A stretch of DNA of 62,880 bases, counting the filler. It is 3 parts of 3 records of this genome, joined end to end, with 100 filler letters (N's around TTAATTAATTAA, not from the genome) between each part and the next. Parts side by side here need not be neighbours in the genome. Positions count along the whole stretch, not along the records: positions 20,678 to 40,229 come from SRR20825006_256; 2 more parts are not named here. One strand, given 5' to 3'. The position numbers and the translations under genes are program-made. Of this stretch, positions 17,484 to 38,078 are shown piece after piece. How positions within the stretch are numbered: position 1 is the stretch's first letter; every line of letters starts with the position of its first letter. The notes under the pieces are model-generated. The model was not told the DNA's origin, did not search any database, and was given only the letters and a program-made list of their open reading frames with translations.

Positions 17484-17501
17484 AATGGAACTCCTGATAT
17501 G

Positions 17502-19841
17502 TCACAGCTGGTTAGACGCACCGTTGTTTCCGTCCGAAGACTTCGGATTGGAACAACTTGCGCTGCATCCACCGGAGCCACAGCTCGCGGACGATGGTTT
17601 CGAATGAGAAGTCGTTTCGGTTTTCGTTTGAGGTCTGGAAGTTTTTGAACCGGATTGCAGTGCCATGCGGCGTTCAAACCGGGCCAGTTTCTGGATCATG
17701 ACCGGGCAATTCTGGTCGTCGTAATACAGTTCCTGGCAATGAAGGCAGTACAGGCATTCATTCGGGTCAATGTGCCCGTCAGGATGAATGGCCTGAACCA
17801 TGCATTCGTTTGCGCACCGGTGGCAGGGCGAACCACAATCACGATACCGTTTCAGCCAGTCATTGACCCGGATCCGGCCAGGTATCGCCAAAGCCGCCCC
17901 CAGCGGGCAAAGGTAACGACAGTAAAACCGCTCGATGAAAAGCCCCGCGACCAACAGCAGAACCGCAAACAGGACGAACGGCCAATCGCGCATAAAGGAC
18001 AGAATGATAGCCGTCTTGAACGGCTCGATCTCGGCCAGATGCTCGGCCTGATCGAACGCATGGAACGAGATGCCAAACAGGACCAGAAAGGCGATATATT
18101 TGATCGGCCAAAGGCGCTGATGCAGGCCAAAGGGAACCGCGATTTGCGGAATGCGAAGCTGTTTGGCCAGCTTGTTCAAAAGTTCCTGAAGTGCGCCAAA
18201 CGGGCAAAGCCACCCGCAATATGCACCGCGTCCCCAGAATATCAGTGACGCCGCAACCGCAAACCACAGCATGAAGATCAGCGGATCCATCAGGAAATAG
18301 GACCAGTCAAAACCCGACCCGAAGGAATTGGCAACCGTCAGGACATTGACGACCGAAAGCTGTGCATTGGCATAATATCCAATCCAGACCACGGTAAAGA
18401 TCAGGAATCCAGTCCGGATCCGCTGCGTCAGTTTGCGACGGCGGACAAACCAGTCCTGGAAGAAGAACAAGCCGGTCAGAAGCAGGATTGCGCAAGACAG
18501 GATGACAATATCGACAATCCGGTTCGTCCATATCCGCTTCCAAAGCGCGTCCCGGTTTTGGGTATCGGTACCGGATTTCTGTGCACCAACCTCGTTGGCT
18601 TTTTCCGAAACATTATCCGGTGCCGCCGTCGCAACATCGATCTTGCGCAGATATTTGACCGGTGGCGCATAATCGACGCCAAATGTCGTAAAGGCCTTTT
18701 CCAAAGCGCCTAGCTGGCGCTGGACCAGAAGCTGCAAATGCCACGGCACAGTTGGATCAAACGGCACTTCTTCGGGGATAACAAAAAGGGCAACTTCCCT
18801 GAAACGCGGCGCACCCTCGGCCGCAATTTCCCCGAGGCGCTTGTGATGTTTGTCACGGAAACGGACACTGTTATCGCCCTGTATAACCTGAATACGGTCA
18901 AACACCCCACCGCGAACATAACCCGATCCCTTGAAGGAATATTCACCGTTCGCCGCAACAAGCAACGCCTGCTGGCCGGGCTTCAGAACCTTCTGAAGAT
19001 TGGCATATTCCGCATCCCCCAGCAGATTATGTCCGATCATCGGAATGGAAACGAGAGCGGTATATAGATCAATGAACGGGCCGTCGGCAGCGATCCTGGC
19101 TTGATCGTTGCCACTACCTTTACCTTGCCCTCTGTCGTCAGTTCCCTCGAAGGCCTGCGCAACATCGCCATGCGATAGCGACAGACGCCTAACCGACCCG
19201 TCGCCAAGCAATTCATCCCAGCTTGCCTGCCCGTCTTGCGACATATCGACGGCGAATTTGTCGCCCTTGCCGCCCGGCTGCGCCAACCCGCCCAGACCAA
19301 GTGTTCGGGCCACCTTGATTGCCGAGCGCCGAATTGAATCGTCAATCACCATGATGGTGACGGTGGCACCACTCACGATATCGTCAGGCAACGCATCCAG
19401 CTCTTCGCTGCGGGCATATTCGGCGATGTTAAAACCGGTATAGCCCGCGATGTAGTCCGTGATTTTGCTTTCAGGAATGCCAACCAGCACGATCGGTTCT
19501 TTGTGGGCAACCAGTCGTGCACCGGTAATAACACCCTGCATCGAGATGCCGACCAGAATGTCGATTGGTTTGCCGGAATAACCAACCGAATTGGCCCAGT
19601 CGCTATTGAGGAAAATGTAACCAAGCTGGTTACTGCCGCTATAGACGGGAACAAGATGATCTGTTGTTTGCTCCTCGCCGATATGATCGGCTCCGGGCAT
19701 GATGCTTCCGGCATCAAGCGACACGACATAATCGTCAAGCGTACCGGCAAAACTGCTCGTGAACGCAAGTCCCCAACCGATCACTGCCAGCAGAAGCAGG
19801 CGCAAACCCGATAACGAAAATGATCCGGATACAACAACCAC
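17502..19841 (-). CDS. nosR: NosR flavo-iron-sulfur membrane protein
   Basis: FMN site VSGATVT, YCGWLCPFGALQE, FYCRYLCPLGA and C-terminal ferredoxin-type cysteines; GTG start. Confidence 0.95.
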   Translation of the reverse strand: MVVVSGSFSLSGLRLLLLAVIGWGLAFTSSFAGTLDDYVVSLDAGSIMPGADHIGEEQTTDHLVPVYSGSNQLGYIFLNSDWANSVGYSGKPIDILVGISMQGVITGARLVAHKEPIVLVGIPESKITDYIAGYTGFNIAEYARSEELDALPDDIVSGATVTIMVIDDSIRRSAIKVARTLGLGGLAQPGGKGDKFAVDMSQDGQASWDELLGDGSVRRLSLSHGDVAQAFEGTDDRGQGKGSGNDQARIAADGPFIDLYTALVSIPMIGHNLLGDAEYANLQKVLKPGQQALLVAANGEYSFKGSGYVRGGVFDRIQVIQGDNSVRFRDKHHKRLGEIAAEGAPRFREVALFVIPEEVPFDPTVPWHLQLLVQRQLGALEKAFTTFGVDYAPPVKYLRKIDVATAAPDNVSEKANEVGAQKSGTDTQNRDALWKRIWTNRIVDIVILSCAILLLTGLFFFQDWFVRRRKLTQRIRTGFLIFTVVWIGYYANAQLSVVNVLTVANSFGSGFDWSYFLMDPLIFMLWFAVAASLIFWGRGAYCGWLCPFGALQELLNKLAKQLRIPQIAVPFGLHQRLWPIKYIAFLVLFGISFHAFDQAEHLAEIEPFKTAIILSFMRDWPFVLFAVLLLVAGLFIERFYCRYLCPLGAALAIPGRIRVNDWLKRYRDCGSPCHRCANECMVQAIHPDGHIDPNECLYCLHCQELYYDDQNCPVMIQKLARFERRMALQSGSKTSRPQTKTETTSHSKPSSASCGSGGCSASCSNPKSSDGNNGASNQL

Positions 19842-19920
19842 GGCACGTCCCCACCAAACTGATGCTCCATAATCTGAAAACCAGTGAGCGGGACCTTATC
19901 GGATCCGGAAACGCCTTCAC

Positions 19921-19934
19921 TTGACTCACGTCAT
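19921..19934. promoter_or_regulatory. FNR/NnrR-type box upstream of nosR
   Basis: TTGAC-TCAC-GTCAT (one mismatch) ~80 nt upstream of nosR. Confidence 0.6.
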
Positions 19935-20187
19935 GTCAAAATTGCGAAATCGCAATTGCCTGATAGCTTGTCGTTTTATCTACGCAAAAACGTCATTTTT
20001 GATGACGCTCTCTAAAATTGATGTCTTCGAAACTTCAATACCAAACGACATACGGGACGAGAACGCTCAAAATGGGCGGCACTTTCAAGTCCCGTTAAGC
20101 TCATATCATAAAGCTATATAGTCCCGAATTGTGAGCCCGCGACAAAAGGAAACTCTCGCACATTTTCACCTCCGGAATACTTCGGTA

Positions 20188-20577
20188 TTAACAAAACCGG
20201 TATCCAACCCCCGGCTCGTTTTCGATATAGGTCGGGTTCAGCGGATCATCGCCAAGTTTCTGGCGAAGGTGGCCGATATAGATACGCAGATAATGCGTTT
20301 CACTTTCCTGCGCAGGTCCCCAGATTTCGCGCAAAATCTGTTGATGGGTCACAATCCGGCCTGCGTTACGCGCCAGCAGGGTCAGGAGTGCGAACTCCTT
20401 TTTGGTGAGTTTCAATTCGTTCTCACCCTTGAAAACCCTGTGCGCGGCCAGGTCGATCTTCAGATCGCCCGAAACAATCTCGCTACTGGTCAGGCCTTCG
20501 GATTTGCGGCTGCGTAAGATAGCCCGCACCCGTGCGATCAATTCGGCAATTCCGAACGGCTTGGTCACGTAATCGTT
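20188..20577 (-). CDS. kdpE: OmpR-family response regulator, KdpE-like (5'-truncated by the contig break)
   Basis: DYVTKPFGIAEL, VTHQQILREIWGP, HYLRIYIGHLRQKLGDDP, EPGVGYRF. Confidence 0.75.
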   Translation of the reverse strand, partial: NDYVTKPFGIAELIARVRAILRSRKSEGLTSSEIVSGDLKIDLAAHRVFKGENELKLTKKEFALLTLLARNAGRIVTHQQILREIWGPAQESETHYLRIYIGHLRQKLGDDPLNPTYIENEPGVGYRFC

Positions 20578-20677
20578 NNNNNNNNNNNNNNNNNNNNNNN
20601 NNNNNNNNNNNNNNNNNNNNNTTAATTAATTAANNNNNNNNNNNNNNNNNNNNNNNNNNNNNNNNNNNNNNNNNNNN
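20578..20677. other. Artificial contig-joining spacer
   Basis: N-run containing TTAATTAATTAA (stops in all six frames); base composition changes abruptly across it. Confidence 0.97.
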
Positions 20678-20756
20678 GTTCTCGACTGCGCTCGAACTGA
20701 CATTTTTTTGACCACGCTTAGCTAATTGGGTTGTCACACCGAGCGCAGTCGAGGTG
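20678..20756. repeat. Inverted pair of REP-like elements at the contig end
   Basis: GTTCTCGACTGCGCTCGAACTGACA (20678-20702) and TGTCACACCGAGCGCAGTCGAGGTG (20732-20756) share the inverted core CTCGACTGCGCTCG / CGAGCGCAGTCGAG. Confidence 0.7.
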
Positions 20757-20758
20757 CT

Positions 20759-23700
20759 TTAAGCACCTTCTGAATATAAATTATCATTTAAAGTTTGAAG
20801 TACTGCATCTACATTGCCCTCAAAAATTTTATTAATACGGGTATAGCCGCCTTCTTCTTTAAAAGGATCATTATTTAAATCTTCTTTGGTTAAAATGGCT
20901 TCAGCGATAAGCTGTGCCTTAAAGCGATCAAGCCAGCGTTGTTGAATTTTATTCCAGTTGTGCATCGCCTGTATTTTGGCAAAGGCATTTGCGATACGCT
21001 GCTCCTGCGGAATCAAATCTACATCAAGCGCCAGGGTGCGAATATAGGCAATGATATCTGCTGCGATATCCTGATTTTTGACCTGTTTCCAGGCAGTCTG
21101 AAGCGCGCGGGTATTAAAACCTTCTGCATCCAGCTGTAATTTGAGTTCCTTCAGACTCTTACGGTCCAGAGAAGTAGGACTGGTCACAATCGCTTGTAAT
21201 GCAGCAATTTTATTCTTGTTTTCTTTTATATATTTTTTAAAGCCTTCGATATAGTCTTCCGGTTTCTGTGCCTTGCCATAATCCCGGTCTGTACCCAAAA
21301 ACTCATCTTTATGTTCGGAGACGAGTTGTACTTTCGGTCTGTAGATTTTTCGGTCTAGATAATTCCATAAGTTGGAATAGGACTGAATGATTTTTTTGAC
21401 TTCCTGCTGCGAAGCATTTTTTATGGTCTCAATAATCTCCTGAGGTTCCAATCCACCGGAGCGATAGATGAACTCCTCCATATCTTCAGCTTCTATTTTC
21501 TTGCGCTTGCGCTGTAGTTTAGATAGTAATTGCTCTACTTGAGTTTGTACCCGTTCCTCGGTCTCAATATGATCAAGCTCCTCTACCAGTTGGGTAAAGG
21601 AAGTTGAAGGATTGCTCACCGGTTTCATCTGGGTATAATCATCAAGCGCTTCGTGCACCCGAACGGCATCATAAATATCAAAAGACTCTTTCCCAATCTC
21701 ATCACATTTACGGGTAGCACGTCCCAGCATTTGCTCAAACAGAATACGCGAACTTACCCGGCGTAGGAATACCAGATTACAAATGGCCGGTACATCTATT
21801 CCAGTAGTTAGCAAGTCTACAGTAACTGCGATGTTTGGAAACTTTTCATTTTTATACCTGCGGGTTAATTCTTCAGGATCTTTAATACTTCCTGTAATTT
21901 TTTCAATAGCTCCCTGTGGTACGTCAAAGCCAATATTGTGAAACTCCTCGTGTAATTGGTTTACAATTAAATCAGCGTGAGAATCCCTTACTGCAAAAAT
22001 TAACGTCTTCTCTTCACTATTAGGGTCCAGATACTGTACCAATTGTTTGATTACCGTACGGTTAAAATCGTCGGTGATGACCAGTTTATTAAACTGTTCA
22101 ATTTCTACCAACATATCATCTTCCAGTTCAGCCAGTTCTTCAATTTTGTTGGTTTCAGGATTGAATACTTTAGGACGTTCACCTTTTTTCCAGAGAATAC
22201 CCTCTTCACTGAGTTTGGTTTTAATACGATGCGGTGGATCGTGATCTGCAAGGTATCCATCGATAACCGCTTGGCGGTAGGAATAGGAATACACAGGTTT
22301 CCCAAAGATCTGAGTGGTATGCAGTGCCGGTGTAGCAGTCAACCCAATGATGTAGGCGTTAAAGTATTCGATTACCCGTTTATACTGGCTTACATAGTCG
22401 TTTTGATCTTTAAAGCTAAAGTCTTCTTCGTCCAGTTCTTTGTCCAGATTATAACCCCGGTGCGCCTCATCAATGATGATGCAGTCGTAGGTGTCGATAG
22501 GTAATTTATCGGTGTCATTATAAAATAGGCGTTTAACCAGGCTTTGCACAGTTGCAAAATGAATGCGGGTATCGGCATCGGGTATTGAGGTTTTCATATC
22601 CTCAATTTGATACACTTCAGAAAAGGTGTTTATACCTTCAACCTTGTTGTCTTTGTAATTGCCTAAAGCTTGTTTTGCAAGGAGTCGTCGGTCTGTCAAA
22701 AATAAAATGCGCTTAAACCGGTTGGCTTTTATCAAACGGTAAGTAAGGCCTATGACTGTTCTGGTTTTACCCGTCCCTGTGGCCATCACCAAAAGGGATT
22801 TTAGCTCCTCCCTGTTTTTAATGATTTTGGTTTCAACAGCCTTAATCGCATTGATCTGGTAATCCCTTAATCCAAGTCCGTTTTTATCCTGCAGATAGTC
22901 ATAGTCGCTTTGAACCAGACGTTTATTTTCTTCTTCGGTTTTCTTATCAAATAGGTCTTTAAGACCCTGTGGGGAAAACCATCCTCTTAGTGGATAAGGG
23001 TGATTGTGATTATTGCGTACATCTAAGAACCAAATTCCGCTTTTGGTTTTAATTTGTTCCAAATAGTCCCTACCATTTGTTGAAAACAAAAAGGGAGCTT
23101 TATAGTCAAACCAGTCACCTAATAGCTCAAACTGTTCTGTTGCCTCAATACACCCGGCATAGATTTTAGACTGCCGCAAGTCGGTTGAAATGTCACTGCT
23201 GTATTTTTTTGCTTCTACAATACCGTAAAGGGTAGTATCGATAAATAAGGCGTAATCTGCCCAACCACCTTCACAAGGCCATTCTGATATAGCCATAAAC
23301 CGGCCTTTCTCGGGTAGTGTTTTATGTGTTTTGTAATTGAGTTCTGTCGTGTCAGCCTCCCATCCAGCAGCTCTCAATTGCGGGTCGATAAGGGTCAGTC
23401 GCGTATCTTTCTCGCTTAAGTTTAATTTTTTAGCAACGCGCTCACTGCGTTTTTTTCGAGAGTCGGTTACGGCCTTAGAGCTGTTGAGTTGCTCTATTTT
23501 TTCTTTGTAATCGGCCACTTGCTGTGCCAGAAAGTCTACCTGCTCTGATAGCTCTTTTACCGAGAGCTTATTTTCTTTGGTAAGCTGATAGTTGGTTTCT
23601 GTGATGTAGTCATTCTCGTAGGTTTCGTAAAACCATTTAGAAAGCTGAAAGCACTTTTTCAGAATGAACAGGGCTTCTGGTTTTGAACCGGTCCCGTCGT

Positions 23701-23980
23701 GGCTCGCTTTGTTTCCAGAGGTGCGTATGGTATGTAAAATACCTTTGATGATGTCCGGAATAATATTGCGGTGAGCAAGCTGATTGATGCGGTCTACTTG
23801 TCTGCCGCTAAATTCATCCAGTTCTTCAAAGTCCCAGATTAAAACACTAGTCTTTTCAGCCAGTAAGCGCGCTTTAGCTATTGACGAACTGGGGTCAACA
23901 GTATAAAGTTTTTCGGCAAGTGCAGCAATCCCATAAAGTTCCGGATAAACCGGCTGGAGGAAATTAAAGCTTGAGGGCAT
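20759..23980 (-). CDS. hsdR: Type I restriction enzyme R subunit (EcoKI-like HsdR)
   Basis: Nuclease motif ADYALF...VEAKK, Walker A MATGTGKT, DEAHRGY, LTATP, LLTTGIDVP, QMLGRATR. Confidence 0.93.
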   Translation of the reverse strand: MPSSFNFLQPVYPELYGIAALAEKLYTVDPSSSIAKARLLAEKTSVLIWDFEELDEFSGRQVDRINQLAHRNIIPDIIKGILHTIRTSGNKASHDGTGSKPEALFILKKCFQLSKWFYETYENDYITETNYQLTKENKLSVKELSEQVDFLAQQVADYKEKIEQLNSSKAVTDSRKKRSERVAKKLNLSEKDTRLTLIDPQLRAAGWEADTTELNYKTHKTLPEKGRFMAISEWPCEGGWADYALFIDTTLYGIVEAKKYSSDISTDLRQSKIYAGCIEATEQFELLGDWFDYKAPFLFSTNGRDYLEQIKTKSGIWFLDVRNNHNHPYPLRGWFSPQGLKDLFDKKTEEENKRLVQSDYDYLQDKNGLGLRDYQINAIKAVETKIIKNREELKSLLVMATGTGKTRTVIGLTYRLIKANRFKRILFLTDRRLLAKQALGNYKDNKVEGINTFSEVYQIEDMKTSIPDADTRIHFATVQSLVKRLFYNDTDKLPIDTYDCIIIDEAHRGYNLDKELDEEDFSFKDQNDYVSQYKRVIEYFNAYIIGLTATPALHTTQIFGKPVYSYSYRQAVIDGYLADHDPPHRIKTKLSEEGILWKKGERPKVFNPETNKIEELAELEDDMLVEIEQFNKLVITDDFNRTVIKQLVQYLDPNSEEKTLIFAVRDSHADLIVNQLHEEFHNIGFDVPQGAIEKITGSIKDPEELTRRYKNEKFPNIAVTVDLLTTGIDVPAICNLVFLRRVSSRILFEQMLGRATRKCDEIGKESFDIYDAVRVHEALDDYTQMKPVSNPSTSFTQLVEELDHIETEERVQTQVEQLLSKLQRKRKKIEAEDMEEFIYRSGGLEPQEIIETIKNASQQEVKKIIQSYSNLWNYLDRKIYRPKVQLVSEHKDEFLGTDRDYGKAQKPEDYIEGFKKYIKENKNKIAALQAIVTSPTSLDRKSLKELKLQLDAEGFNTRALQTAWKQVKNQDIAADIIAYIRTLALDVDLIPQEQRIANAFAKIQAMHNWNKIQQRWLDRFKAQLIAEAILTKEDLNNDPFKEEGGYTRINKIFEGNVDAVLQTLNDNLYSEGA

Positions 23981-24201
23981 GAATATTTGGTTAGTTTTCT
24001 AAATGGAAGGGGGACTTAAAAATATATATTATTATCAATAAACTCAAACCTAAGTAAAAAAGAATTTAGAGCGTTACGGAATTCTGTAATTCTGTTTAAA
24101 GCATTTTCTTAAATTGTATAAGATATAATCAATTAGTCGGAACCGTTTCTAACCAAAAATGTTCTAAGAAATAGGTATTTATTGCAGGCAAGATCAAACT
24201 T

Positions 24202-25197
24202 ATGAAGATGAATGTAATTCAAGCCATAAAGGAGTTTAATACAGATGCTTTACAAGAGCTATTAGATGACAGCAAAAGCTATATGGAAGTGTCTAAAAAA
24301 TTGTTTTTAAAAACACTCAAAGTAAAGTTTGAGGAGGCTAGAGAAGGAGGCTGTAATCAATTTGATGAAGTTTATTTTGGAGTTTGTCAAAGCTGTAATA
24401 AAGGATGCGAAGCAATCACTTTTTGGGCTGAAACAGGTCACTACTTGGATCTCTTTATTGAATCGAGCGACGAAAAGACTGTTGATGATATATATACCTG
24501 CTCAAGTATTGAAAACTTTATAGAATTAGACAAAGAGTTTGATTTGAGTTTTTCATTTCACCGCGAAGAGCATGTTAATTTTAAGCCTACTAAAGCGTAT
24601 ACTTCTATTCGAGATACGTTAACTCAATTTGATCGAGAAATCAAATTACAACCCAATCCTTGGCCATTAGAGGAATGCTTAACATTTTTTGAAAGGTATA
24701 GTGTTTTACAAAGTTATATGAGTACTATTGGATTATTTGATGTATTTGAATACAAGCTCTACAGTCGGTTATTTAGACTGGTAGGAGATATAGAAAATTT
24801 GGAGAACATTGTCAAGGCTCAAAGAGACGCTGTTGATGAAATACTAGACTTAGAACGCCTGACAGCAGAGCGAGAGTGGCTCATTTGGTATTACGAAAAT
24901 AAGGAATTTCAATTTGCAGCAAATGCTTTTAAGTTTAAGGAAGGGATTAAGGAACTCAGATTTCCTCAGGTGAATATTGGTCAGTATTCTTTTACGATTG
25001 ATATGAAAGGCTTTGAATATGTTTTAAAATTCTTTTTTAAAATTGAAGAGATCTACCATTACTTTATGGAAAAGTACAAACCGCAAGCCAAACACTTTGA
25101 GCAACAAGGGGCGATTAAATATGAACTAGAAACATATCTCAAATTATACGATGCGCATCAAGATGTTGTAAATAGCTACATTAATAAGCAAGCTTAG
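24202..25197 (+). CDS. Hypothetical protein with a CxxCxxxC motif
   Basis: 331-aa ORF in AT-rich DNA containing GVCQSCNKGC; no recognised family. Confidence 0.7.
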   Translation: MKMNVIQAIKEFNTDALQELLDDSKSYMEVSKKLFLKTLKVKFEEAREGGCNQFDEVYFGVCQSCNKGCEAITFWAETGHYLDLFIESSDEKTVDDIYTCSSIENFIELDKEFDLSFSFHREEHVNFKPTKAYTSIRDTLTQFDREIKLQPNPWPLEECLTFFERYSVLQSYMSTIGLFDVFEYKLYSRLFRLVGDIENLENIVKAQRDAVDEILDLERLTAEREWLIWYYENKEFQFAANAFKFKEGIKELRFPQVNIGQYSFTIDMKGFEYVLKFFFKIEEIYHYFMEKYKPQAKHFEQQGAIKYELETYLKLYDAHQDVVNSYINKQA

Positions 25198-25490
25198 CAT
25201 ATTGTAAAGATCCCATCATCTAGGGAAGATTTCCTCAAATAAGATGTTAGCAAAATCCGCAAACTGTGCTTTGTAATTGATATAAGGCGGTGTTACTATA
25301 TAAGACTTCAAATTTAAAGTGTATAGCTATTTCAGGACTAACACCTAGAGATGTATAACCACATCAGGATTAAAGGACACTCAGATAAGGCTTTAATGCA
25401 GCTACTTGGTTCACCCGAGGATACTGCATAGATAAAGCATAGATAGAGTATGGATACAGTATGAAGAGCTTATGAAAGGAGTAGGCTGAA

Positions 25491-25742
25491 TTAAGATGTC
25501 TTTTTAAAGAGCGATTTCAGCGGAACTTTTAGCTCTTTTGCAATTAGTAATAGAGTTTCGAAAGTAGGATTTGTATTGCCTCGCTCTATTTCACCTATTG
25601 TTTTTTTCGCGTGTCCTGTTCTGAGACCGAGTTCTTCCTGAGAAATAGGTTTGTTGGTTTTAGGATTAATCACAAATTGACGTAAATCAGCAATTCTTGC
25701 TCCTAGTTCTTCTTTCTCTTTTTTGAATTTTATATTGGACAT
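25491..25742 (-). CDS. XRE/Cro-family helix-turn-helix regulator
   Basis: LGARIADLR...ISQEELGLRTG...IGEIERGNTNPTFETLLLIAKELKV; divergent from the sigma gene. Confidence 0.9.
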   Translation of the reverse strand: MSNIKFKKEKEELGARIADLRQFVINPKTNKPISQEELGLRTGHAKKTIGEIERGNTNPTFETLLLIAKELKVPLKSLFKKTS

Positions 25743-25775
25743 CAAGATAAAATTCTTAGTTTATCTTAATATTTT

Positions 25776-25795
25776 AGGATACATATATGTATCCT
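25776..25795. promoter_or_regulatory. Perfect 20-bp palindrome, candidate HTH operator
   Basis: AGGATACATA/TATGTATCCT, ~35 nt upstream of the HTH start and between the divergent genes. Confidence 0.65.
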
Positions 25796-25828
25796 TTTGT
25801 TATATTTATTATATTTACCTCATAATTA

Positions 25829-25836
25829 TATATTTG
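25829..25836 (+). promoter_or_regulatory. Bacteroidetes -7 promoter element (TAnnTTTG) facing the sigma-dCas12f operon
   Basis: TATATTTG matches the TAnnTTTG consensus. Confidence 0.55.
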
Positions 25837-25882
25837 CGAAACTTCTTTAAGTAACATATTAGAAGCATTCGCTTTGAATCTC

Positions 25883-25991
25883 GCTATCAAAAACTGGTAA
25901 TTTTTATGCAACGAGAGGATAAGCCGGGATGCTCACGACCCGGGCGTGGGCTCTCACTTATTGTTGCGTGGTATACCAGTGCCCTGATAGC
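25883..25991 (+). ncRNA. Long nested stem-loop in the leader of the sigma gene (structured leader or ncRNA)
   Basis: Nested pairings GCTATCA/TGATAGC, ACTGGTA/TACCAGT, GCAAC/GTTGC, ATAAG/CTTAT, GCTCACG/CGTGGGC; a U-rich run follows at 26011-26021. Confidence 0.55.
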
Positions 25992-26181
25992 ATAAGTTGA
26001 GACCTGCGCCTTTTCTTTTTTCTCAGCACTTCTCAACATTCAAGCCGTGTTTCTTCCTTAACGAAGGCGAGCAGCCACACCCCAATTTCAAAATTGGCAA
26101 CTTGCCGGGTACCCCTATGCCTACAAGCAAGCCAAGAACCCCCTAAACTAATGCTTATGTAAGAACTAAAACGGGTTAAGA

Positions 26182-26970
26182 ATGAAACGATTTTCAGCAG
26201 ACAAACACTATACAGGGTTCAAACACGGCTGCCCTAGGGCCTTCAAAGCCATTTATACCCAATACCATCGGCAGATCTATTGGATGGGACGGAGTTTGAT
26301 CAAAGATGTATTTGTGGTAGAAACCTTGGTACAAGACACTTTTCTCACCCTATGGGAAAAACGCGAAAGCATTGAGTCTCCACAACATCTGGTCAATTTT
26401 CTATATACCGTCATTTTCAATGAATGCAAATGGTATTATGCGCGGCCTAAAAATCAGTTTAATCGGGAGTGTTATGCTTTAGAAAAGATAGACAACTTCC
26501 AAAGCTTTATGCTGGGCTATGATCCCACAGCGGTAGACATACATTTAGAAGACCAGCAACAACAGGAAAAGGAGTATGAGCAGGTGGTTAAGGTATTGCC
26601 GCTTTTGGGTGCCCCACGCCAACGCCTTATCGAGCTTTGTTTGCAACACGGTTTTAAATACAAAACCATTTCCGAGCAGTTGGGCATCAGCATCAAAGAA
26701 ACCAGTAATACACTCCAGCAAACCATCGAAGAGATCAAAAACATTTTGCATCAAGGCTATGTACTCCAACCTCAGGAAACTGAGCCAATGCAAAACGGAG
26801 AAGGGCAGATGACTGAGCAGGAAGCTCGTGTACACGCACTTCGTTGTGAGCAGCAATACTCGTTTGCCCAGATCGCTAACGAACTCCAACTTTCCCAAAA
26901 GGAAGTACATCGCGCCTTTACCACGGCCTATAAGCTCTTACAGCAGCACGAACACTTACAATCCGCTTGA
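26182..26970 (+). CDS. rpoE: Atypical ECF (sigma-70 family, RpoE-like) sigma factor with an extra C-terminal HTH
   Basis: Region-2-like AFKAIYTQY...LVQDTFLTLWEKR, region-4-like RQRLIELCLQHGFKYKTISEQLGIS, and a second HTH YSFAQIANELQLSQKEV. Confidence 0.8.
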   Translation: MKRFSADKHYTGFKHGCPRAFKAIYTQYHRQIYWMGRSLIKDVFVVETLVQDTFLTLWEKRESIESPQHLVNFLYTVIFNECKWYYARPKNQFNRECYALEKIDNFQSFMLGYDPTAVDIHLEDQQQQEKEYEQVVKVLPLLGAPRQRLIELCLQHGFKYKTISEQLGISIKETSNTLQQTIEEIKNILHQGYVLQPQETEPMQNGEGQMTEQEARVHALRCEQQYSFAQIANELQLSQKEVHRAFTTAYKLLQQHEHLQSA

Positions 26971-28070
26971 TGATGAACAACAAGACCTTAAGCCTTACCC
27001 GCAAGATCCAACTCAAGGTAGATTTGCCTACCTATGAAGAGCGTAAAGAAGCGATTGGTAAACTCTACCAATGGCAAAACCGCTGCTTTAAAGCGGCCAA
27101 CATCATCGTGACCCAATTGTACTGCCAGGAAATGATCAAGGAGTTCTTTTACCTGACCGAAGACATCCAATACAAACTGGCCGATCAAAAGAAAGACGAA
27201 AACGGTATCTTAAACCGTTCGCGCATCAACACCACTTATCGGGTAATCGCAGACCGCTTTAAAGGAGAGATCCCGATGGAAATCTTATCCAACCTCAATC
27301 GGAACTTAGAAAGTAGCTTCAATAAAAACAAACCCAAATATTGGAAGGGCGAGCGCTCCCTCAAAAACTTCAGGCGGGACATTGGTTTTCCGTTTCCTGC
27401 GCGCTGTATGTGGGGCTTCAAGCACGACCCCGAGCGTAATGCCTTCTGTTTTCGCTTATTTCAGATTCCCTTTTGCACCTATCTGGGCAGGGACTTTTCC
27501 GATAAGCGGGACCTCTTGCATCGGGCGGTAAAGGGGGAGGTGCGCCTACGCACTTCAGAGATCAAATTGACCGATACAAAGATCTTTTGGTTGGCGGTAT
27601 TTGATATTGAGCAAGAGCAGCACGCTTTAAAACCGGAGGTGATTGCCGAAGCTTCCTTGTCGCTGGAGCATCCCATCAGCGTCAAAGTGGGCAGCAACAG
27701 GTTAAACATCGGGACCAAAGAAGAATTCCTCTACCGTCGCTTGGCCATCCAAGCCGCCCGGAAGCGTGCCCTGGCCGGAACCGTAAATTCTCGAGGTGGT
27801 CACGGCCGCACCCGCAAGCTTAAAGCGGTGGAAAAATATAAGGACAAAGAGACCAAGTACGTCAATCAGCGCTTACACGTTTACAGCAGAAGACTCATAG
27901 ACTTTTGTGTCAAACACCAAGCAGGCACACTGATCTTGATTAATCAAGAAGACAAGATCGAAGCCGCTAAAGAAAATCAATTTGTCCTCAGAAACTGGAA
28001 CTATTACGAACTCACTAAAAAAATAGAATACAAAGCCAAAAAAGCAGGAATTGAATTGGTCATAGATTAA
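26970..28070 (+). CDS. Nuclease-dead Cas12f/TnpB-like RNA-guided DNA-binding protein (dCas12f)
   Basis: Cas12f-like elements LTRKIQL, GHGRTRKLK, HVYSRRLIDF and LRNWNYYELTKKIEYKAKKAGI. The RuvC-I position reads ASLSL (no Asp) and RuvC-II reads LILIN (no Glu); the protein ends before the zinc finger and RuvC-III. Start overlaps the sigma stop (TGATG). Confidence 0.8.
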   Translation: MMNNKTLSLTRKIQLKVDLPTYEERKEAIGKLYQWQNRCFKAANIIVTQLYCQEMIKEFFYLTEDIQYKLADQKKDENGILNRSRINTTYRVIADRFKGEIPMEILSNLNRNLESSFNKNKPKYWKGERSLKNFRRDIGFPFPARCMWGFKHDPERNAFCFRLFQIPFCTYLGRDFSDKRDLLHRAVKGEVRLRTSEIKLTDTKIFWLAVFDIEQEQHALKPEVIAEASLSLEHPISVKVGSNRLNIGTKEEFLYRRLAIQAARKRALAGTVNSRGGHGRTRKLKAVEKYKDKETKYVNQRLHVYSRRLIDFCVKHQAGTLILINQEDKIEAAKENQFVLRNWNYYELTKKIEYKAKKAGIELVID

Positions 28071-28094
28071 ACCTATTGATTGATTTTATGATCA

Positions 28095-28182
28095 GAGGGT
28101 GCTTGTACACCCGTAATGTGAGGTCACGGGCACTCACCAAATGCAAAAGCATATACAACGGCGTGTTCATCTACACTTAGAA
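28095..28182 (+). ncRNA. Putative guide RNA 1 (scaffold 28095-28165 plus variable 3' guide TTCATCTACACTTAG...)
   Basis: Three-hairpin repeat unit starting 25 nt after the dCas12f stop and repeated 160 nt later. The guide 3' end is approximate. Confidence 0.7.
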
Positions 28183-28254
28183 AACAAGAGCTTTTTAGTG
28201 AAGCACATAAAATAAAAATGGTTGAGTTTTTAATCTTGAATTTGGAATATAATC

Positions 28255-28344
28255 GAGGGTACTTGTATACCCGTAGGGTGAGGCTGAAGCGCTCACTAAA
28301 TATCATACCGATATATACAATGGCGTGAGTTAGTTATCTTTAAA
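28255..28344 (+). ncRNA. Putative guide RNA 2 (scaffold 28255-28327 plus variable 3' guide AGTTAGTTATCTTTA...)
   Basis: Second copy of the scaffold with compensatory changes; similarity to copy 1 ends sharply after GGCGTG. Confidence 0.7.
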
Positions 28345-28499
28345 CCGTTTTAAAATGATTGAACACAAAAGGTCCTAGTTTTATCCAGCCTTAATACTAT
28401 TAAGAATTATCCCTTGATAAACTACACGTTTGGTTAATTGTAAAGGTTGGTTTAGGTTCCGAATGAAGTGTAATCAACAGCTTATTTTTTAAAGAAAAC

Positions 28500-29093
28500 A
28501 TGAAAAAAATCATACTTCCATTAATACTTATCCTAGTTATATATCACTCTTGTTTAGATCAAAATCAAAATCAGTCTAGTGCAATTGATACAGGGTTATT
28601 TAAAGAAGTTCAAAGTGATAGTATAAGCTTTAAAATCCCTGATACACTAAACGTTACACAAAATAAAAGGATAAACGCTTTGGTGCTCTTAAACCCTCAA
28701 AGTTCTAAATCATATTACGCGCTTATTTTAAATCCCGCAAAAGAAATAAGAACTACTGAAGAATACATTAAAGCAGTATTTTCAAACTTAAAGAGGGATT
28801 ATGGTAATTACGAGTATAGTTTAACAAAGGTACACTTGGACACGGGAGCTCATTTTTATTATATAAATGTCCTTATCGAAGATGATAAGGAAACGTACCG
28901 CATACACAATTTGATCTATTTAAAAGATGATCATTTTTATGATTTCAGTTTGCGGGGTTTAAATAAAGACTTTCAAAGTAAAGACTACGAGCGCTTATTT
29001 AAAAAAATAGTCTTTAGTACTAGAGTAAACAAAGAAGAGTTATTTCGTGCAGAAAATACCAAAGTAGTAAGAGAGGAGAATGTAGTACTGTAG
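28500..29093 (+). CDS. Hypothetical lipoprotein
   Basis: MKKIILPLILILVIYHSC signal peptide II-like N-terminus; 197 aa. Confidence 0.65.
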   Translation: MKKIILPLILILVIYHSCLDQNQNQSSAIDTGLFKEVQSDSISFKIPDTLNVTQNKRINALVLLNPQSSKSYYALILNPAKEIRTTEEYIKAVFSNLKRDYGNYEYSLTKVHLDTGAHFYYINVLIEDDKETYRIHNLIYLKDDHFYDFSLRGLNKDFQSKDYERLFKKIVFSTRVNKEELFRAENTKVVREENVVL

Positions 29094-29210
29094 AATCCTT
29101 TAGTATCTGGAAGTTTATAGATATAATGTAAAAGGATTGATAAATACCTAATATGCAACTTCTCATAAGGAAAGAGGTCTATTGATTTGTATTAACCTAC
29201 CAATTCTATT

Positions 29211-30971
29211 ATGCCTTATATTCGATCCTTCCTTGTGCTGCTATGTGTAGTAATCAGTATTCAATCTGCTTTTTCCCAAGAAAAATACAATCTGAATTTT
29301 AATGATTTTGATCCAAACGAAGAGCGCTTGCCTGAAGGCTGGTTCGTATGGGGTGATTTTAAAACCGTTGTTGGGGATCGAGAAAATCCAAACAATGCAG
29401 TAGGTAAAATAGTATCCGACAAAAAAGGAAAATTTGGATGCATTGCCTATCAAATTCCAGCAAATTATATCGGAGATACCATTGTACTATCAGGTAAAAT
29501 CAAGTATGAAAAGGTCAAAAATTATGTAGGGCTGCTCATACGTATTGATGGTAAAAAATCAGTAGCCTTTAGAAGTATGCAATACTTGCAAATGCGGGGT
29601 TCTAGGGATTGGAAAGAATATTCGATAAAACTTCCTTATCCTACGAACGCCGCAAACATCTATGTGGGCGGAATTTTAGGCAAAGGAGGTACGGCTTGGT
29701 TTGATGATTTTAAGGTGACTATAGACGGAAAAGACATCCAGACCCTTGAAGAAACACCAGTTCAGACTTTAGCGCAAGTAGATAGTAAACAGCTACAACA
29801 GGCGATCAAGCAAGCTTCAAGTCCGCTGGATTGGTCTACAGATGCTCAATTGAGTAAAGATCTGGATGCATTAATTGAGAAGGTGGGAGATAAGCGCATT
29901 GTAGCCTTAGGAGAAAGTACGCATGGCACTTCCGAATTTTACAAGTTAAGAGCTTTACTTACGAAGAGATTAGTAGAAGAAAAGGGCTTTAATCAGGTGG
30001 TTTTAGAAAACCCCTATGACAATATCGAACGTTTAAATATGGAATTGAATACCAAACTGCTTGACAGTCTAATCAAGAGGGACCTGTTCTCCATTTATCA
30101 GACCGAAGAGGTGAAATCCTTTTTAGAATGGTACAAAAACAAGCGTACTAAAGTTGATGTGGAATTCAAGGGATGTGACGATTCCTATTGGTCTTTCCTT
30201 GAAGTCTTGACCGATCGATTAAAAGATATTCCGGATAACCAGTTGGAGCTACAAGTACAACAGCTTAAAACCCACGTATCGAAATCAACTAAAGCTAACC
30301 GCAAGAAAGAAATTCGGTTCAACAATTTGATCTATGAGGATATCGTCCAAATCGAAAAGTATCTAAAAGACGCCAATATGCTTGATGAGGATCTTGAAGA
30401 GCTCCTGTTCAACGGGAAGAATTCCTATATCAATTATGTGCACATAAAAAATGGCAAACCCATTCAAAGTCGGGACAAAATCATGGCAGATCGAATAGCG
30501 TATTTGGCTAGAGATAATAATAATAAGATCATTGTCTGGGCGCATAATGCACACATTGCTAACGAAGTCATAGCAGACAACGAAATAGGTGTTATGGGGA
30601 GAGATCTAAAAGCAGTCTTTGGGGAAGATTACTACACAATAGGGCAAATGACTTCAGAAGGGACCTATTCCTATATGGAGGAGAAGTTGATCAATGCGGA
30701 TAAGGATTATTCCGAAATACTTAAAACAGCAGTATTGCAGCAGCAAGACGAACTCTTATGGGAAGATCTATTCGCTGGGTGTTCTGAAGCGTTTATACTA
30801 GATCAAAAAGAACTAAAGAAGTCTTTTGATAAACGTATTATGGGACTTACCAAGTTGGTTGGTTATGCCAAAGAAACTGAAAAAGACCAGTATTTCTTAC
30901 CGCTTATGGAATATTACGATTCCCTGATTTACATTAACAAAACCCAAGCGACTTCACTTCTTTTTGATTAA
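29211..30971 (+). CDS. Secreted erythromycin-esterase-family protein with an N-terminal beta-sandwich-like domain
   Basis: Signal peptide; RIVALGESTHGTSEF, RDKIMAD and IIVWAHNAHI motifs. Confidence 0.85.
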   Translation: MPYIRSFLVLLCVVISIQSAFSQEKYNLNFNDFDPNEERLPEGWFVWGDFKTVVGDRENPNNAVGKIVSDKKGKFGCIAYQIPANYIGDTIVLSGKIKYEKVKNYVGLLIRIDGKKSVAFRSMQYLQMRGSRDWKEYSIKLPYPTNAANIYVGGILGKGGTAWFDDFKVTIDGKDIQTLEETPVQTLAQVDSKQLQQAIKQASSPLDWSTDAQLSKDLDALIEKVGDKRIVALGESTHGTSEFYKLRALLTKRLVEEKGFNQVVLENPYDNIERLNMELNTKLLDSLIKRDLFSIYQTEEVKSFLEWYKNKRTKVDVEFKGCDDSYWSFLEVLTDRLKDIPDNQLELQVQQLKTHVSKSTKANRKKEIRFNNLIYEDIVQIEKYLKDANMLDEDLEELLFNGKNSYINYVHIKNGKPIQSRDKIMADRIAYLARDNNNKIIVWAHNAHIANEVIADNEIGVMGRDLKAVFGEDYYTIGQMTSEGTYSYMEEKLINADKDYSEILKTAVLQQQDELLWEDLFAGCSEAFILDQKELKKSFDKRIMGLTKLVGYAKETEKDQYFLPLMEYYDSLIYINKTQATSLLFD

Positions 30972-31053
30972 TAACTCAGAATACCTGTTTGATAGATAGG
31001 TTTCAGTTTTACAATTCAAATAGTTTAAGCAAGAAGGAGGAAGCCGTAATATA

Positions 31054-31875
31054 CTACCATTGAAAACTGGCGAATACTGGTAAATGATCTGACGCATAGT
31101 GTTCATCAATTACTAGATGGTTGTTCAGCTTGAAAAAAGACTTTGGTTTAAAGGCTATAAAATCAATAGCCTTTGACGGATTTTCTACGGGGATTGTGGG
31201 CGGACAAGAGGAGCAGGTTCTTGTAAATACGCTATCGAGTGAGGTAATTACTGGACTGTTTGCTACGGTATTAAAATCTCCAGCCACCAGCACAGGTTGG
31301 TTTAAATTGGTAGTGATATTTAATAGTTCTTCTATTTGTAAGATCCGGTTGGTATCTTCTTTCTGAGAATCTAAATGGGTACTTGCAAACCAAATGGTCT
31401 GCGCATCCGGTAACTGGATCAATGACAGCGCCAAAACTCGAGGTTCTCCGTGAGTTTTAGGTTTTGAAGGAAGTTTATAGACCTTAGATGCTATAATAGG
31501 GAATCGAGAAAGAATAGCAACACCGTATGCTCCGTTTTGAAAATCTATTGACTTACCAAAGAATACCTGCATTCCCAGGGCATCTCCAATCTTTTGGGCT
31601 TGATTTCCAGAACCCGAGCGCTCCGTATCTGAATCGATTTCTTGTAAAGCAACGAGATCTGCATCACTATCTTTGATGACTTGAATGATGGCTGAGAGAT
31701 CTATACTGTCCTTATGCATCGGCGGATTCGCGTGATGAATGTTATAGCTTAAGACCTTCAGTTGATTGGAGGAGTTTCCAAAAGTAGCCGTGGAGCGCTC
31801 TTGAGAAAGCATTGGGTAAAAGGATAAAAAAAGGATTATCTTGAAGATAATCCCTTTAGTCATTTTTGTATGCAT
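31054..31875 (-). CDS. Endonuclease/exonuclease/phosphatase (EEP) family protein
   Basis: VLSYNIHH, VALQEID, STHLD, AGDFN, IDFI, ASDHLPV; start uncertain (31893/31875/31863). Confidence 0.88.
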   Translation of the reverse strand: MHTKMTKGIIFKIILFLSFYPMLSQERSTATFGNSSNQLKVLSYNIHHANPPMHKDSIDLSAIIQVIKDSDADLVALQEIDSDTERSGSGNQAQKIGDALGMQVFFGKSIDFQNGAYGVAILSRFPIIASKVYKLPSKPKTHGEPRVLALSLIQLPDAQTIWFASTHLDSQKEDTNRILQIEELLNITTNLNQPVLVAGDFNTVANSPVITSLDSVFTRTCSSCPPTIPVENPSKAIDFIAFKPKSFFKLNNHLVIDEHYASDHLPVFASFQW

Positions 31876-31905
31876 AGTGTTGTATGGGTTCATTAGGTAA
31901 AGCTA

Positions 31906-32763
31906 TTAGTTCTCTGTTAGTTCAACTTTTGCAATCACAGGAAAGTGATCAGAGATATAGCGATCTCCGCGTTGTCCATCTAAAATTTGTAAAGTTAAGG
32001 GTTGCACCCCTCCCGAGTAGAATATGTTATCTATTCTACTATCTGAGGTTCTTCCTGTTGCATCCCATCCATTAGCACTGTATTCGGGACCATAGACCTG
32101 ATCTGCATCTAAAGTAAGGTACGGATCTTTCAATCCGGAGCTTAAGAGGGTAGCGATAGCCTCACTTTTCGGCGAACTATTAAAATCACCCGTGAGTAGC
32201 ACGGGGGAGGTTCCGGCAATTTCCTTAATTTTTTGAGTAAGTAAAGCTGCACTTGCTATTCGAGCTTGTTTTCCTCGGTGATCAAAATGCGTATTGAAGT
32301 GATAGAAGCTTACTCCAGAGTGTTTATCTTTAAATAAAGCCCAAGTTACAATACGGGGTAAAGCCGCGTCCCAACCCTTGGAAGCGACAACATCTGGTGT
32401 TTCTGAAAGCCAAAAGGTATTGCTATCTAAAACTTCAAAGCGCTCTTTTTTATAGAAAATCGCAGAGTACTCTCCTTGAGTTGCACCTTCGCGACCTATA
32501 CCTACGTGCGCGTAATAAGGTAGGAGTACTTCCATATCCAAAAGTTGGGTATGGGTGACTTCTTGGGTACCAATAAGGTCTGCTTGATAAAACCGAATAC
32601 TGTGGGTGAGCCAGTCTTTACGCTGCTCCCATATATTGATCCCGTCTTCAGGACTATTATAGCGTATATTGAACGAACTTATTACAAGTTCCCTCTTGCT
32701 TTTCTGAGCATTTACACTGCTGAATAGGAGCAGTGCAAATGCAATAGATACTAGGGTTCTCAT
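31906..32763 (-). CDS. Secreted EEP-family protein
   Basis: SFNIRY, GTQE, FWLSETP, NTHFDH, GDFN, SDHFPV; ATG overlaps the susD stop (TAATG). Confidence 0.9.
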   Translation of the reverse strand: MRTLVSIAFALLLFSSVNAQKSKRELVISSFNIRYNSPEDGINIWEQRKDWLTHSIRFYQADLIGTQEVTHTQLLDMEVLLPYYAHVGIGREGATQGEYSAIFYKKERFEVLDSNTFWLSETPDVVASKGWDAALPRIVTWALFKDKHSGVSFYHFNTHFDHRGKQARIASAALLTQKIKEIAGTSPVLLTGDFNSSPKSEAIATLLSSGLKDPYLTLDADQVYGPEYSANGWDATGRTSDSRIDNIFYSGGVQPLTLQILDGQRGDRYISDHFPVIAKVELTEN

Positions 32764-34502
32764 TAGTTCCAACCAGGGTTTTGTTCCAGATTAGGATTGA
32801 GTTGTAATTCTATACGCGGTATAGGGTAGAGATAATCCTTGTTTTCATCAAAACTTCTGTTGTTAAAATCCGGATGAGGATCAATCAATCCATTCATGTC
32901 CAAGGTGAAATCTGAATCTAAGCGATAATATTGAATTCCGCTTATTGGATTCGCTGGTCGTTCTCCTTCATAAAGCACGACATTTATAGCACCATCTCCG
33001 GTAAGGTCATATTCACCTGGTCCGGGGAAGTATAAACCTCGAATAGGTTGGGTAAGGGTTTGGCCGGCTTTCCAGCGCACCACATCATCCCATCTGAAGT
33101 TTTCCATATACAATTCAATGCGTCGCTCTCGTCTTATTTCTAAAATAACACCAGTATTTGCTCCGGTTACATCGGGATACTGAGCTGCCATAAACGAATC
33201 TGGTGCTGCATTTGCTGTATCTAGATTCAAATCAGGCATACCAACGCGTTGTCTTAGTAAATTAATGGAATTATTGAGATCTTCTTGAGATAGCGTTCCT
33301 AATTCAGCTTTAGCTTCTGCATAATTCAAGAGCACTTCTCCAAAACGATAGATAGGAAGATCCGTAATAGACTGCCCATTGGTATCATAAACCGGCTCGG
33401 TCACATACTTTATGATTTGATAACCGGTAACTGTAGCTCCAAGATTAGGAGCCAACTCAATACTTTGTCCTTTTCGGGTATATCCTGGAGTGCGTATCGT
33501 CTGTGCCAAACGAGGGTCTCGATTTTGAACTTCTTCAGTAAAGGACAGTTGATTATAGCCTGCTCTATCTGTAAAACGCGTTCCATCAGCATTCAGATAG
33601 CTATTTACAAGATCTTTCGGCATACCTGGACGACCATACGAACTTGTCGTGGTGTAGTAATTTACATTATGACCAATATTAAGATCTTCCGAATAGGCGC
33701 GGGCTAAGATCACTTCAGTTTCATTAGCATCATGTGAATTAAACAACTCTAGATAATCTTGTTCCGGATTTCCTGTGCTGTAAATCTGATAAGGAGAATC
33801 TTCAATCAATGCAGTTGATGCTGCTACAGAGGCTTCTAGGTATTTTTCATAACCGTCAATCCCTCTATATTTCTCGTAAGTTCCCTCATAAAGTCCGATC
33901 CTTGATTTTAAAGCCAAAGCCGTATACTTAGTCACTTCATATGTATTTTGCTCTTCATTGAGGTTTTCAATGGCCCAGTCTAGATCTTCAAGCATTTTAT
34001 CAACAACATACTGTCTTGAGTCTCTAGGTTTGGTAAGGGCTTCAGTATCGTCTGGAGCTATGGGAGCGTCATACCAGGGTAAAGCACCAAAGCGTTGGAA
34101 CTTATCGAAGTAAAACCGCGCTCTAAAAAAGCGAGCTACCCCTCCATAATGGGCTTTAGCCGCTTCATCATCAGATTTTTCGTATTCCTGAAGAAAGAAA
34201 TTGATGTCGCGCAAATATTCCCAATTCCAACCGCCTCCGGTCGTAGGTACTAGCCTTGCGCCACGCATTTCTTCACTCAATTCAGTTTGTATAATATTGT
34301 CTGTACTCGCTTCTCCGTTGTAGATGGAAGTACTGGGCCACATCCGGTAAAACCCGTTGGTGTACAGTTGAAGATCACTAGCGGTATTGAAAAAGGTTTC
34401 AGCAGTAATTTCAGATAGCGGTTGCTTGTCTAAAAAATCATCACTGCACGAACTGATGCTGGTTGCTACAAGCAAACCGGCAAGTATATGTTTAACTTTC
34501 AT
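32763..34502 (-). CDS. susD: SusD/RagB family nutrient-binding lipoprotein
   Basis: Lipobox SSC-SDDFLD, RFGEVLLNYAEA, IRRERRIEL...RWDDVVRW, YLYPIP...NPNLEQNPGW. Confidence 0.93.
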   Translation of the reverse strand: MKVKHILAGLLVATSISSCSDDFLDKQPLSEITAETFFNTASDLQLYTNGFYRMWPSTSIYNGEASTDNIIQTELSEEMRGARLVPTTGGGWNWEYLRDINFFLQEYEKSDDEAAKAHYGGVARFFRARFYFDKFQRFGALPWYDAPIAPDDTEALTKPRDSRQYVVDKMLEDLDWAIENLNEEQNTYEVTKYTALALKSRIGLYEGTYEKYRGIDGYEKYLEASVAASTALIEDSPYQIYSTGNPEQDYLELFNSHDANETEVILARAYSEDLNIGHNVNYYTTTSSYGRPGMPKDLVNSYLNADGTRFTDRAGYNQLSFTEEVQNRDPRLAQTIRTPGYTRKGQSIELAPNLGATVTGYQIIKYVTEPVYDTNGQSITDLPIYRFGEVLLNYAEAKAELGTLSQEDLNNSINLLRQRVGMPDLNLDTANAAPDSFMAAQYPDVTGANTGVILEIRRERRIELYMENFRWDDVVRWKAGQTLTQPIRGLYFPGPGEYDLTGDGAINVVLYEGERPANPISGIQYYRLDSDFTLDMNGLIDPHPDFNNRSFDENKDYLYPIPRIELQLNPNLEQNPGWN

Positions 34503-34513
34503 AAGGATGTTTT

Positions 34514-37795: not shown

Positions 37796-37839
37796 CAGAA
37801 TAGAACTATGGATTTGTACTGTAGTTTTAATTTTAATGA

Positions 37840-37865
37840 CCCGTTTCTGTTGCACCAGAAACGGG
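37840..37865 (-). promoter_or_regulatory. 10-bp hairpin in the susC 5' leader
   Basis: Minus strand CCCGTTTCTG-GTGCAA-CAGAAACGGG, 45 nt upstream of the ATG. Confidence 0.6.
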
Positions 37866-38053: not shown

Positions 38054-38078
38054 TAGAAGTTGAGTTAATCAACTTCTA
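38054..38078. repeat. 10-bp inverted repeat upstream of susC
   Basis: TAGAAGTTGA-GTTAA-TCAACTTCTA. Confidence 0.55.

Follow-up and report, generated by a model that had tools for sequence, protein, structure and literature searches.

Introduction

The association of dcas12f genes, for nuclease-dead Cas12f, with sigma factor genes was reportedly first noted by Altae-Tran et al. in 2023. In the accessible text of Hoffmann et al. (Nature 2026; PMC13472631) these dCas12f-sigmaE systems are described as carrying out RNA-guided DNA binding and guide-dependent recruitment of the sigma factor and RNA polymerase, with promoter-independent transcription that starts 46 bp from the target-adjacent motif (TAM). 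The layout given there is hth (a helix-turn-helix, HTH, gene), a non-coding RNA (ncRNA), rpoE, dcas12f and tandem single-guide RNAs; anti-sigma factor and CRISPR array are both absent. In the accessible parts of the two papers, close homologs of the proteins analysed here activate transcription in cells and in vitro (PMC13472631; 10.1101/2025.06.10.658880), the Flagellimonas taeanensis structures 9n9c, 9n9m, 9n9o and 9n9q come from the companion preprint (10.1101/2025.06.10.658880), and a homolog from Leeuwenhoekiella palythoae co-purifies with tandem guide RNAs [RNA immunoprecipitation sequencing (PMC13472631)]. The locus analysed here lies in the middle contig (20678-40229; SRR20825006_256) of a stretch of 62,880 nucleotides, filler included, which is referred to as the window. 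We assign it, with a probability of about 0.93, as a functional-looking member of the dCas12f-sigmaE family whose mechanism is read from close homology.

The locus resembles the F. taeanensis system in gene order and gene overlap, in a dCas12f that aligns without gaps over its full length, in a sigma factor with an extra C-terminal domain and its contact residues, in a single-guide RNA directly downstream with a 14-nt 3' guide, in a divergent hth with an upstream palindrome and in a conserved intergenic block, a candidate ncRNA. It differs in having two tandem guides and a degenerate third where F. taeanensis has one, in three changed residues at the TAM duplex, and in the A (CCA) that precedes candidate targets in the nearest genome, where F. 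taeanensis has G. The target genes also differ, susCD in F. taeanensis as against candidates of two-component/H-NOX, type IX secretion system (T9SS) cargo and STAS/glycosyltransferase type in the nearest genome. The L. palythoae system, from the same genus, is likened to the locus by its published description. A first-pass annotation of the window had put the locus forward as a candidate system for RNA-guided transcription activation. Since the dCas12f-sigmaE system is already published, tandem-guide Leeuwenhoekiella homolog included (in the accessible text of PMC13472631 and 10.1101/2025.06.10.658880), that reading was right but not new; its interpretation is supported, with guide-defined transcription starts that would follow the published F. 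taeanensis work.

Results

A sigma factor gene coupled to a gene for nuclease-dead Cas12f

The features seen in the first-pass annotation all hold (Table 1): a divergent HTH gene of XRE type, an extracytoplasmic function (ECF) sigma gene coupled to a Cas12f-like gene without RuvC catalytic residues, two structured repeats with different 3' tails, and the link drawn to dCas12f-sigmaE pairs, now borne out by two structural matches and by the published architecture. The comparison with Cas12f that it had proposed for the 26970-28070 product gives, with HMMER, a full-length match to PDB 9n9c_A, 'Nuclease-deactivated Cas12f' (residues 4-366 on 2-364, gapless, E 3.1e-164), with 243 of 363 aligned positions identical (~67%, counted by hand on the HMMER midline). 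Structures of nuclease-active Cas12f and TnpB, among them the canonical type V-F proteins 9nzr, 7l48 and 7c7l, match at E 5e-41 to 6e-10 through a homologous WED/REC/RuvC core.

When the protein is aligned by HMMER to active Cas12f 9nzr_A, Ser230 stands opposite the Asp of the G-V-D-L-G motif and Ile325 opposite the Glu of the M-E-R-L motif; we take these two residues of 9nzr_A to be the catalytic residues of RuvC-I and RuvC-II. The chain also stops ~90 residues before that of 9nzr_A, at the point where the Pfam TNB (zinc-ribbon) domain would start. RuvC mutations and C-terminal truncations are described for dCas12f proteins in the accessible parts of PMC13472631 and 10.1101/2025.06.10.658880. 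An active type V-F CRISPR-Cas12f was considered as the identity of the protein and rejected: unlike the canonical systems, the locus has substituted RuvC residues, lacks a zinc-ribbon/RuvC-III C-terminus and shows no CRISPR array, no adaptation genes and no tracrRNA-type arrangement.

The sigma factor encoded immediately upstream matches PDB 9n9q_C, 'RpoE', over residues 14-260 (E 2.9e-68), the C-terminal domain included, whereas the next PDB match, an ordinary ECF sigma factor, reaches only E 1e-3 and covers residues 46-168 alone. The extra C-terminal HTH-like domain spans about residues 200-262, and within it Pfam identifies a second r4-like helix-turn-helix stretch at residues 209-249. In the F. 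taeanensis protein the contacts of this domain with the truncated RuvC domain are made by R218, F225, H240 and F243 (accessible text of 10.1101/2025.06.10.658880); these align to R221, F228, H243 and F246 of the present sigma factor, identical at 4/4 positions. Direct reading places TGATG at 26968-26972, with the sigma stop codon TGA at 26968-26970 and an ATG at 26970-26972 (the overlap is given as 4-nt). The possible starts of dcas12f are this ATG at 26970 (366 aa), TTG at 26967 (367-aa open reading frame, ORF) and ATG at 26973, the last of which aligns to the F. taeanensis start.

Two predicted guide RNAs with a covarying scaffold

Two repeats of 75-77 nt, spaced 160 nt apart and ending in differing 14-nt 3' tails, follow dcas12f, the first guide RNA (gRNA) beginning 21 nt past its stop codon. 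Scaffold and guide together give predicted RNAs of 89 and 91 nt, within the 85-105 nt reported for single-guide RNAs in the accessible text of PMC13472631. A profile search of 10 related loci (L. palythoae is not among them) yielded 30 further copies 3' of dcas12f homologs, and the resulting 32 scaffolds align as three hairpins with 97.9% of cells paired. Six of the 15 pairs have changes on both sides, and none of 500 column shuffles reaches the observed values; when the register is slid, the paired share falls to 26-58%. Guide 1 is identical to two gRNA copies in Leeuwenhoekiella blandensis MED217, the nearest genome, and the first 10 bases of guide 2 are common to gRNAs of MED217 and of a metagenome-assembled genome locus (L007).

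The first-pass annotation had counted at least three scaffolds. A covariance model built from the 32 scaffolds and run over the whole window with filters off picked out the tandem pair strongly (89 and 76 bits) and one further element weakly, all other matches having E > 1. Two copies thus stand, and the third is weak, degenerate and 10 kb away from the pair, in the susC upstream region on the strand opposite to susC. All three stems of this element can form, and the conserved loop and 3' scaffold bases are lost; its 3' part and tail align to the terminal gRNA class of four related arrays, and it is not present at the corresponding place in MED217. On balance we favour a decayed guide gene over a third working guide.

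Guide arrays vary in length among the relatives. The MED217 genome (L001 / G002) holds six scaffolds and two copies of the ncRNA. Five of the scaffolds are at the syntenic locus (C1:1331664-1334426), in groups of three and two separated by ~1.6 kb with ORFs of 294 and 114 aa, and one is at a second rpoE-dcas12f locus (3579317-3581989). The L005 array has 7 scaffolds by profile search, 6 of them in the scaffold alignment.

Table 1. Positions in the window of the components of the dCas12f locus and of neighbouring features.
Feature	Position	Strand	Description and basis
hth	25491-25745	-	XRE/Cro-type helix-turn-helix regulator, 84 aa; Pfam HTH_3 (E 6e-11), HTH_19 (E 4e-7)
Palindrome	25776-25795		perfect, 20 bp, ~30 nt before the start of hth; candidate operator of the HTH protein; direct reading
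Intergenic block	25805-26018	+ (folding does not settle strand)	near-invariant, 214 nt; candidate hth-associated ncRNA; conservation
rpoE	26182-26970	+	ECF-type sigma factor, 262 aa; Pfam Sigma70_r2, Sigma70_r4_2; PDB match
dcas12f	26970-28070	+	nuclease-dead, C-terminally truncated Cas12f homolog; PDB 9n9c_A match
Guide RNA 1	28091-28179	+	75-nt scaffold (28091-28165), 14-nt guide (28166-28179); covariance model 89.4 bits
Guide RNA 2	28251-28341	+	77-nt scaffold (28251-28327), 14-nt guide (28328-28341); covariance model 75.9 bits
Two Exo_endo_phos genes	31054-32772		after the susC-susD operon
susC-susD operon	32763-37855	-	separates the working guide genes from the degenerate third scaffold; Pfam scan
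Third scaffold-like element with 3' tail	38169-38258	+	degenerate; covariance match 38169-38244, 20.8 bits, rough E 1e-3

The hth gene, its palindrome and the intergenic block

The hth gene is transcribed divergently from rpoE and is unlike the gene in the same place in MED217, where window positions 25485-25801 find no DNA match. At the position of the palindrome four other aligned loci carry three different palindromic sequences, nearly the same sequence occurring in Lparthenopeia and at MED217 locus 2. The differing palindromes and the differing hth gene fit the HTH autoregulation and HTH turnover described for dCas12f-sigmaE systems in the accessible text of PMC13472631. Just past the hth stop codon (25419-25463) there are ~4 copies of an 11-nt unit that contains GGATAC; this is also the half-site of the 25776-25795 palindrome, so the repeats may be extra HTH binding sites.

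The intergenic block is almost the same in 5 loci of 4 Leeuwenhoekiella genomes. These include the second, paralogous rpoE-dcas12f locus of MED217, with coding DNA 64% identical and a block 91% identical to that of the window. Two long-range stems are kept by multi-base compensatory differences, as seen in alignment rows and minimum free energy folds [TGCAAC/GTTGCG in the window, GTACAC/GTGTAC in MED217 locus 1]; the RNAalifold consensus of the block gives 0 covarying pairs. Folding is alike on both strands (z -2.18 vs -2.09). The rpoE-hth spacer holds one match to the Bacteroidota -7 motif, on the plus strand at 25829-25836. We take the block to be the probable hth-associated ncRNA of Hoffmann et al. 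Two further contigs of the probable source organism (run X1) hold pieces like the block (window 25810-25948 and 25890-25923) and diverge exactly at the start of its variable stretch, one of them running on into sequence that resembles the CATC...ACTT guide class; this suggests more modules of ncRNA type in the same organism.

Candidate targets of the guides in MED217

Outside the locus, guide 1 finds a single exact match in MED217, where ~0.08 would be expected by chance (an estimate from base composition). This match is situated 92 nt upstream of a STAS-domain gene, after which comes a glycosyltransferase gene. Further sites, with 1-2 mismatches, occur 117-138 nt upstream of a signalling operon (response regulator, H-NOX, PAS kinase, FIST, kinase and LytTR regulator), in two copies 21 bp apart, and 82 nt upstream of a gene for a DUF4114 protein whose tail is of the T9SS sorting type. 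All share the coding strand and fall within 13 kb. The sites have CCA before and A after, with the exception of the weaker tandem copy, where the last base is C and the next is T. The accessible text of PMC13472631 has two-component loci among its four target categories. By extension from MED217, guide 1 of the present locus probably drives the two-component/H-NOX signalling cluster and neighbouring operons.

A metagenome contig 96% identical to this region keeps both testable sites; there it is the DUF4114 site that matches guide 1 exactly and the STAS site that has one mismatch, and the sites are conserved no better than their flanks. When metagenomes were scanned with the 18-nt site, 23 of 26 contigs proved to be unrelated DNA. 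The best guide-2 match in MED217 (a single mismatch, 84 nt upstream of an ORF of 276 aa) was judged to be chance because the guide as it occurs in MED217 itself agrees with it at only 11/14 positions. A search of the L007 and L002 genomes with the 415-aa neighbour of the STAS gene did not find it there, and a 394-aa ORF of the window (40369) is unrelated to that neighbour and on another contig.

Host, contig and neighbouring genes

Spacers of the form N44-TTAATTAATTAA-N44 at 20578-20677 and 40230-40329 divide the stretch into three joined contigs, with G + C contents of ~54% (1-20577), ~40% (20678-40229) and 53-59% (40330-62880), so 'nearby' can refer only to 20678-40229. To judge from sequence, that contig alone belongs to the organism that carries the dCas12f locus, and the GC-rich flanking contigs are probably from another. 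The locus has 93% DNA identity to L. blandensis MED217 and the downstream flank 97%; by sequence the host is an L. blandensis-like bacterium. One genome (G001), which lacks dCas12f and has no match to window 18000-37999, is probably related to the GC-rich contigs and not to the dCas12f locus.

All 11 ORFs of at least 150 aa in the middle contig were scanned against Pfam. None of the 11, two of which have no Pfam match, is a transposase, Cas1/Cas2 or FecR-type anti-sigma factor, in agreement with the first-pass annotation, which had seen no transposase, cas1/cas2 or anti-sigma gene nearby. No tandem or CRISPR-like array was detected at the locus, and Rfam at gathering thresholds gave no match in the window. 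Besides the sigma factor, dCas12f, SusD, SusC, two Exo_endo_phos proteins and the two without a Pfam match, the set comprises a type I restriction R-subunit-like protein, an erythromycin-esterase-family protein and an alpha/beta hydrolase. The susC-susD/Exo_endo_phos block is 97% identical to MED217, and the susC-susD upstream region has no match to any guide of the window. Bacteroidota modules of ECF sigma factor, FecR anti-sigma factor and susCD resemble this arrangement in that an ECF-type sigma gene adjoins a susC-susD operon; they differ in that here there is no anti-sigma gene, a C-terminal domain is added to the sigma factor and the sigma gene is coupled to dcas12f.

The segment 28345-31054, which holds the erythromycin-esterase-family gene (29211-30971, Pfam E 1e-27) and a 197-aa ORF without a Pfam match, is missing from the interval that separates guide genes and Exo_endo_phos genes in MED217. 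The R-subunit-like protein, encoded at the edge of the Leeuwenhoekiella contig (20759-23980), has 1073 aa, ResIII and EcoEI_R_C domains and an N-terminal DUF4145; no methylase or specificity gene was seen beside it on that contig. The first, GC-rich contig carries a nitrous-oxide reductase cluster (11019-19841) with a NosR-like Fer4_5 protein, a NosZ propeller/cupredoxin protein, NosD, an ABC ATPase and permease and ApbE; it has no connection to the dCas12f locus.

Discussion

The assignment draws on homology, architecture, the structure of the scaffold and the conservation of guides and sigma contact residues; from these and from the homologs we infer RNA expression, DNA binding, polymerase recruitment and targets (outside the window) at this locus. 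By the F. taeanensis model, a dCas12f dimer would bind each ~90-nt single-guide RNA encoded just 3' of dcas12f, and the 14-nt 3' guide would open an R-loop at a matching genomic site. The extra C-terminal domain of the sigma factor would dock on the truncated RuvC domain and bring RNA polymerase, and transcription, independent of promoter motifs, would start ~46 bp downstream of the site. At the 20-bp palindrome the divergent HTH protein probably acts as repressor of its own promoter, and the conserved intergenic RNA may be an accessory element.

Several observations weigh against the assignment. The two guides and the third tail have no above-chance match elsewhere in the window (searches with the 14-nt tails found 3 against 3.65 expected, 6 against 3.33 and 8 against 5.15), and a perfect-seed scan of the window gave no match in promoter position. 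The MED217 sites have A at -1, not the G of F. taeanensis, for which the accessible text of PMC13472631 shows a 5'-G motif at the TAM; the target calls described there require a perfect 6-nt seed, and two of the MED217 sites are mismatched inside it. An equally good reading of the tandem sites with their 21-bp spacing beside the LytTR gene is a protein operator. For guide 2 no convincing target appears in MED217, nor does one for the position-equivalent guides of L007 and L002 in their own genomes, where the searches returned the gRNA itself and one 1-mismatch match each, neither of them promoter-like. Of the F. taeanensis residues that contact the TAM duplex [M85, Y89, R90, S106, H110 and Q144 in the accessible text of 10.1101/2025.06.10.658880], Y89, R90 and S106 are kept here as Y91, R92 and S108, whereas M85, H110 and Q144 are changed to I87, R112 and R146. 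Finally, contigs from two metatranscriptome-labelled runs (X18 and X17), 90-95% alike, extend over gRNA1, the ncRNA block and portions of rpoE and dcas12f, but show neither transcription, ends nor strand, and DNA carry-over is possible; one identical 218-nt contig over hth in an RNA-labelled run (X19) is a contig alone and no evidence of transcription.

Some of these points would suit a decaying or silent relic, its genes intact by chance and its guides without remaining targets in the strain: no target lies in the 19.5-kb contig, guide 2 lacks a convincing one in the nearest genome, decay of guide genes here is evident from the degenerate scaffold at 38169-38244, and the array is shorter than that of MED217 (5 scaffolds) or L005 (7 by search; 6 in the alignment). 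We nevertheless hold a relic to be very unlikely, in view of two full-length, translationally coupled ORFs, sigma contact residues that are all kept, scaffolds that score as high as any in the family, and a guide 1 that is base-for-base identical between strains whose flanks diverge by 3-7%.

Nuclease-dead relatives of TnpB and Cas12 that repress are known. In the accessible text of Wiegand et al. (10.1101/2023.11.30.569447) the TnpB-like repressors that are nuclease-dead (TldR) have no dedicated sigma partner; like the present protein they are domesticated nuclease-dead proteins of TnpB/Cas12 type that regulate genes of the host by means of a scaffold RNA carrying a 3' guide, but TldR represses, and a sigma partner with a docking domain, as found here, points to activation. 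The least likely of the explanations considered is that dCas12f acts mainly as an RNA-guided repressor (of TldR or CRISPR-associated dCas12f-like type) beside a separate sigma factor that serves ordinary promoters: the MED217 matches do overlap a repeated motif, two copies of which, 21 bp apart, adjoin the LytTR-regulator operon and could be a protein operator occluded by dCas12f, but the sigma factor carries the C-terminal domain that is specific to dCas12f, the four contact residues included, its gene overlaps dcas12f in one operon, close homologs activate in cells and in vitro, and the sites precede ORFs on the same strand by 82-138 nt, which agrees with starts ~46 bp downstream.

Within the assignment to RNA-guided activation, a wider reading joins these observations, and as a whole we consider it doubtful. 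In the Leeuwenhoekiella branch the TAM would have moved from G to A/CCA together with H110R, Q144R and M85I. Guide 1 would be a master switch, encoded in RNA, for a nitric-oxide/two-component cluster (H-NOX, PAS kinase, FIST and LytTR), and also for a T9SS-secreted protein and the STAS/glycosyltransferase operon. The guide would land on a repeated promoter-proximal motif, which may double as a protein operator, and guide genes would turn over, being gained, lost and scattered around the susCD operon.

The dCas12f-sigmaE family is a natural counterpart of CRISPR activation, in which the choice of promoter can be encoded in RNA. That principle is already published, with cell biology and cryo-EM structures, and the present locus adds no new one. 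What it adds is an intact two-guide member in a marine Leeuwenhoekiella, a clean covarying model of the scaffold, and, in the nearest genome, a candidate regulon other than susCD together with a TAM that may lack the G. As leads these are useful to work that maps the TAM diversity and the regulons of dCas12f-sigmaE systems.

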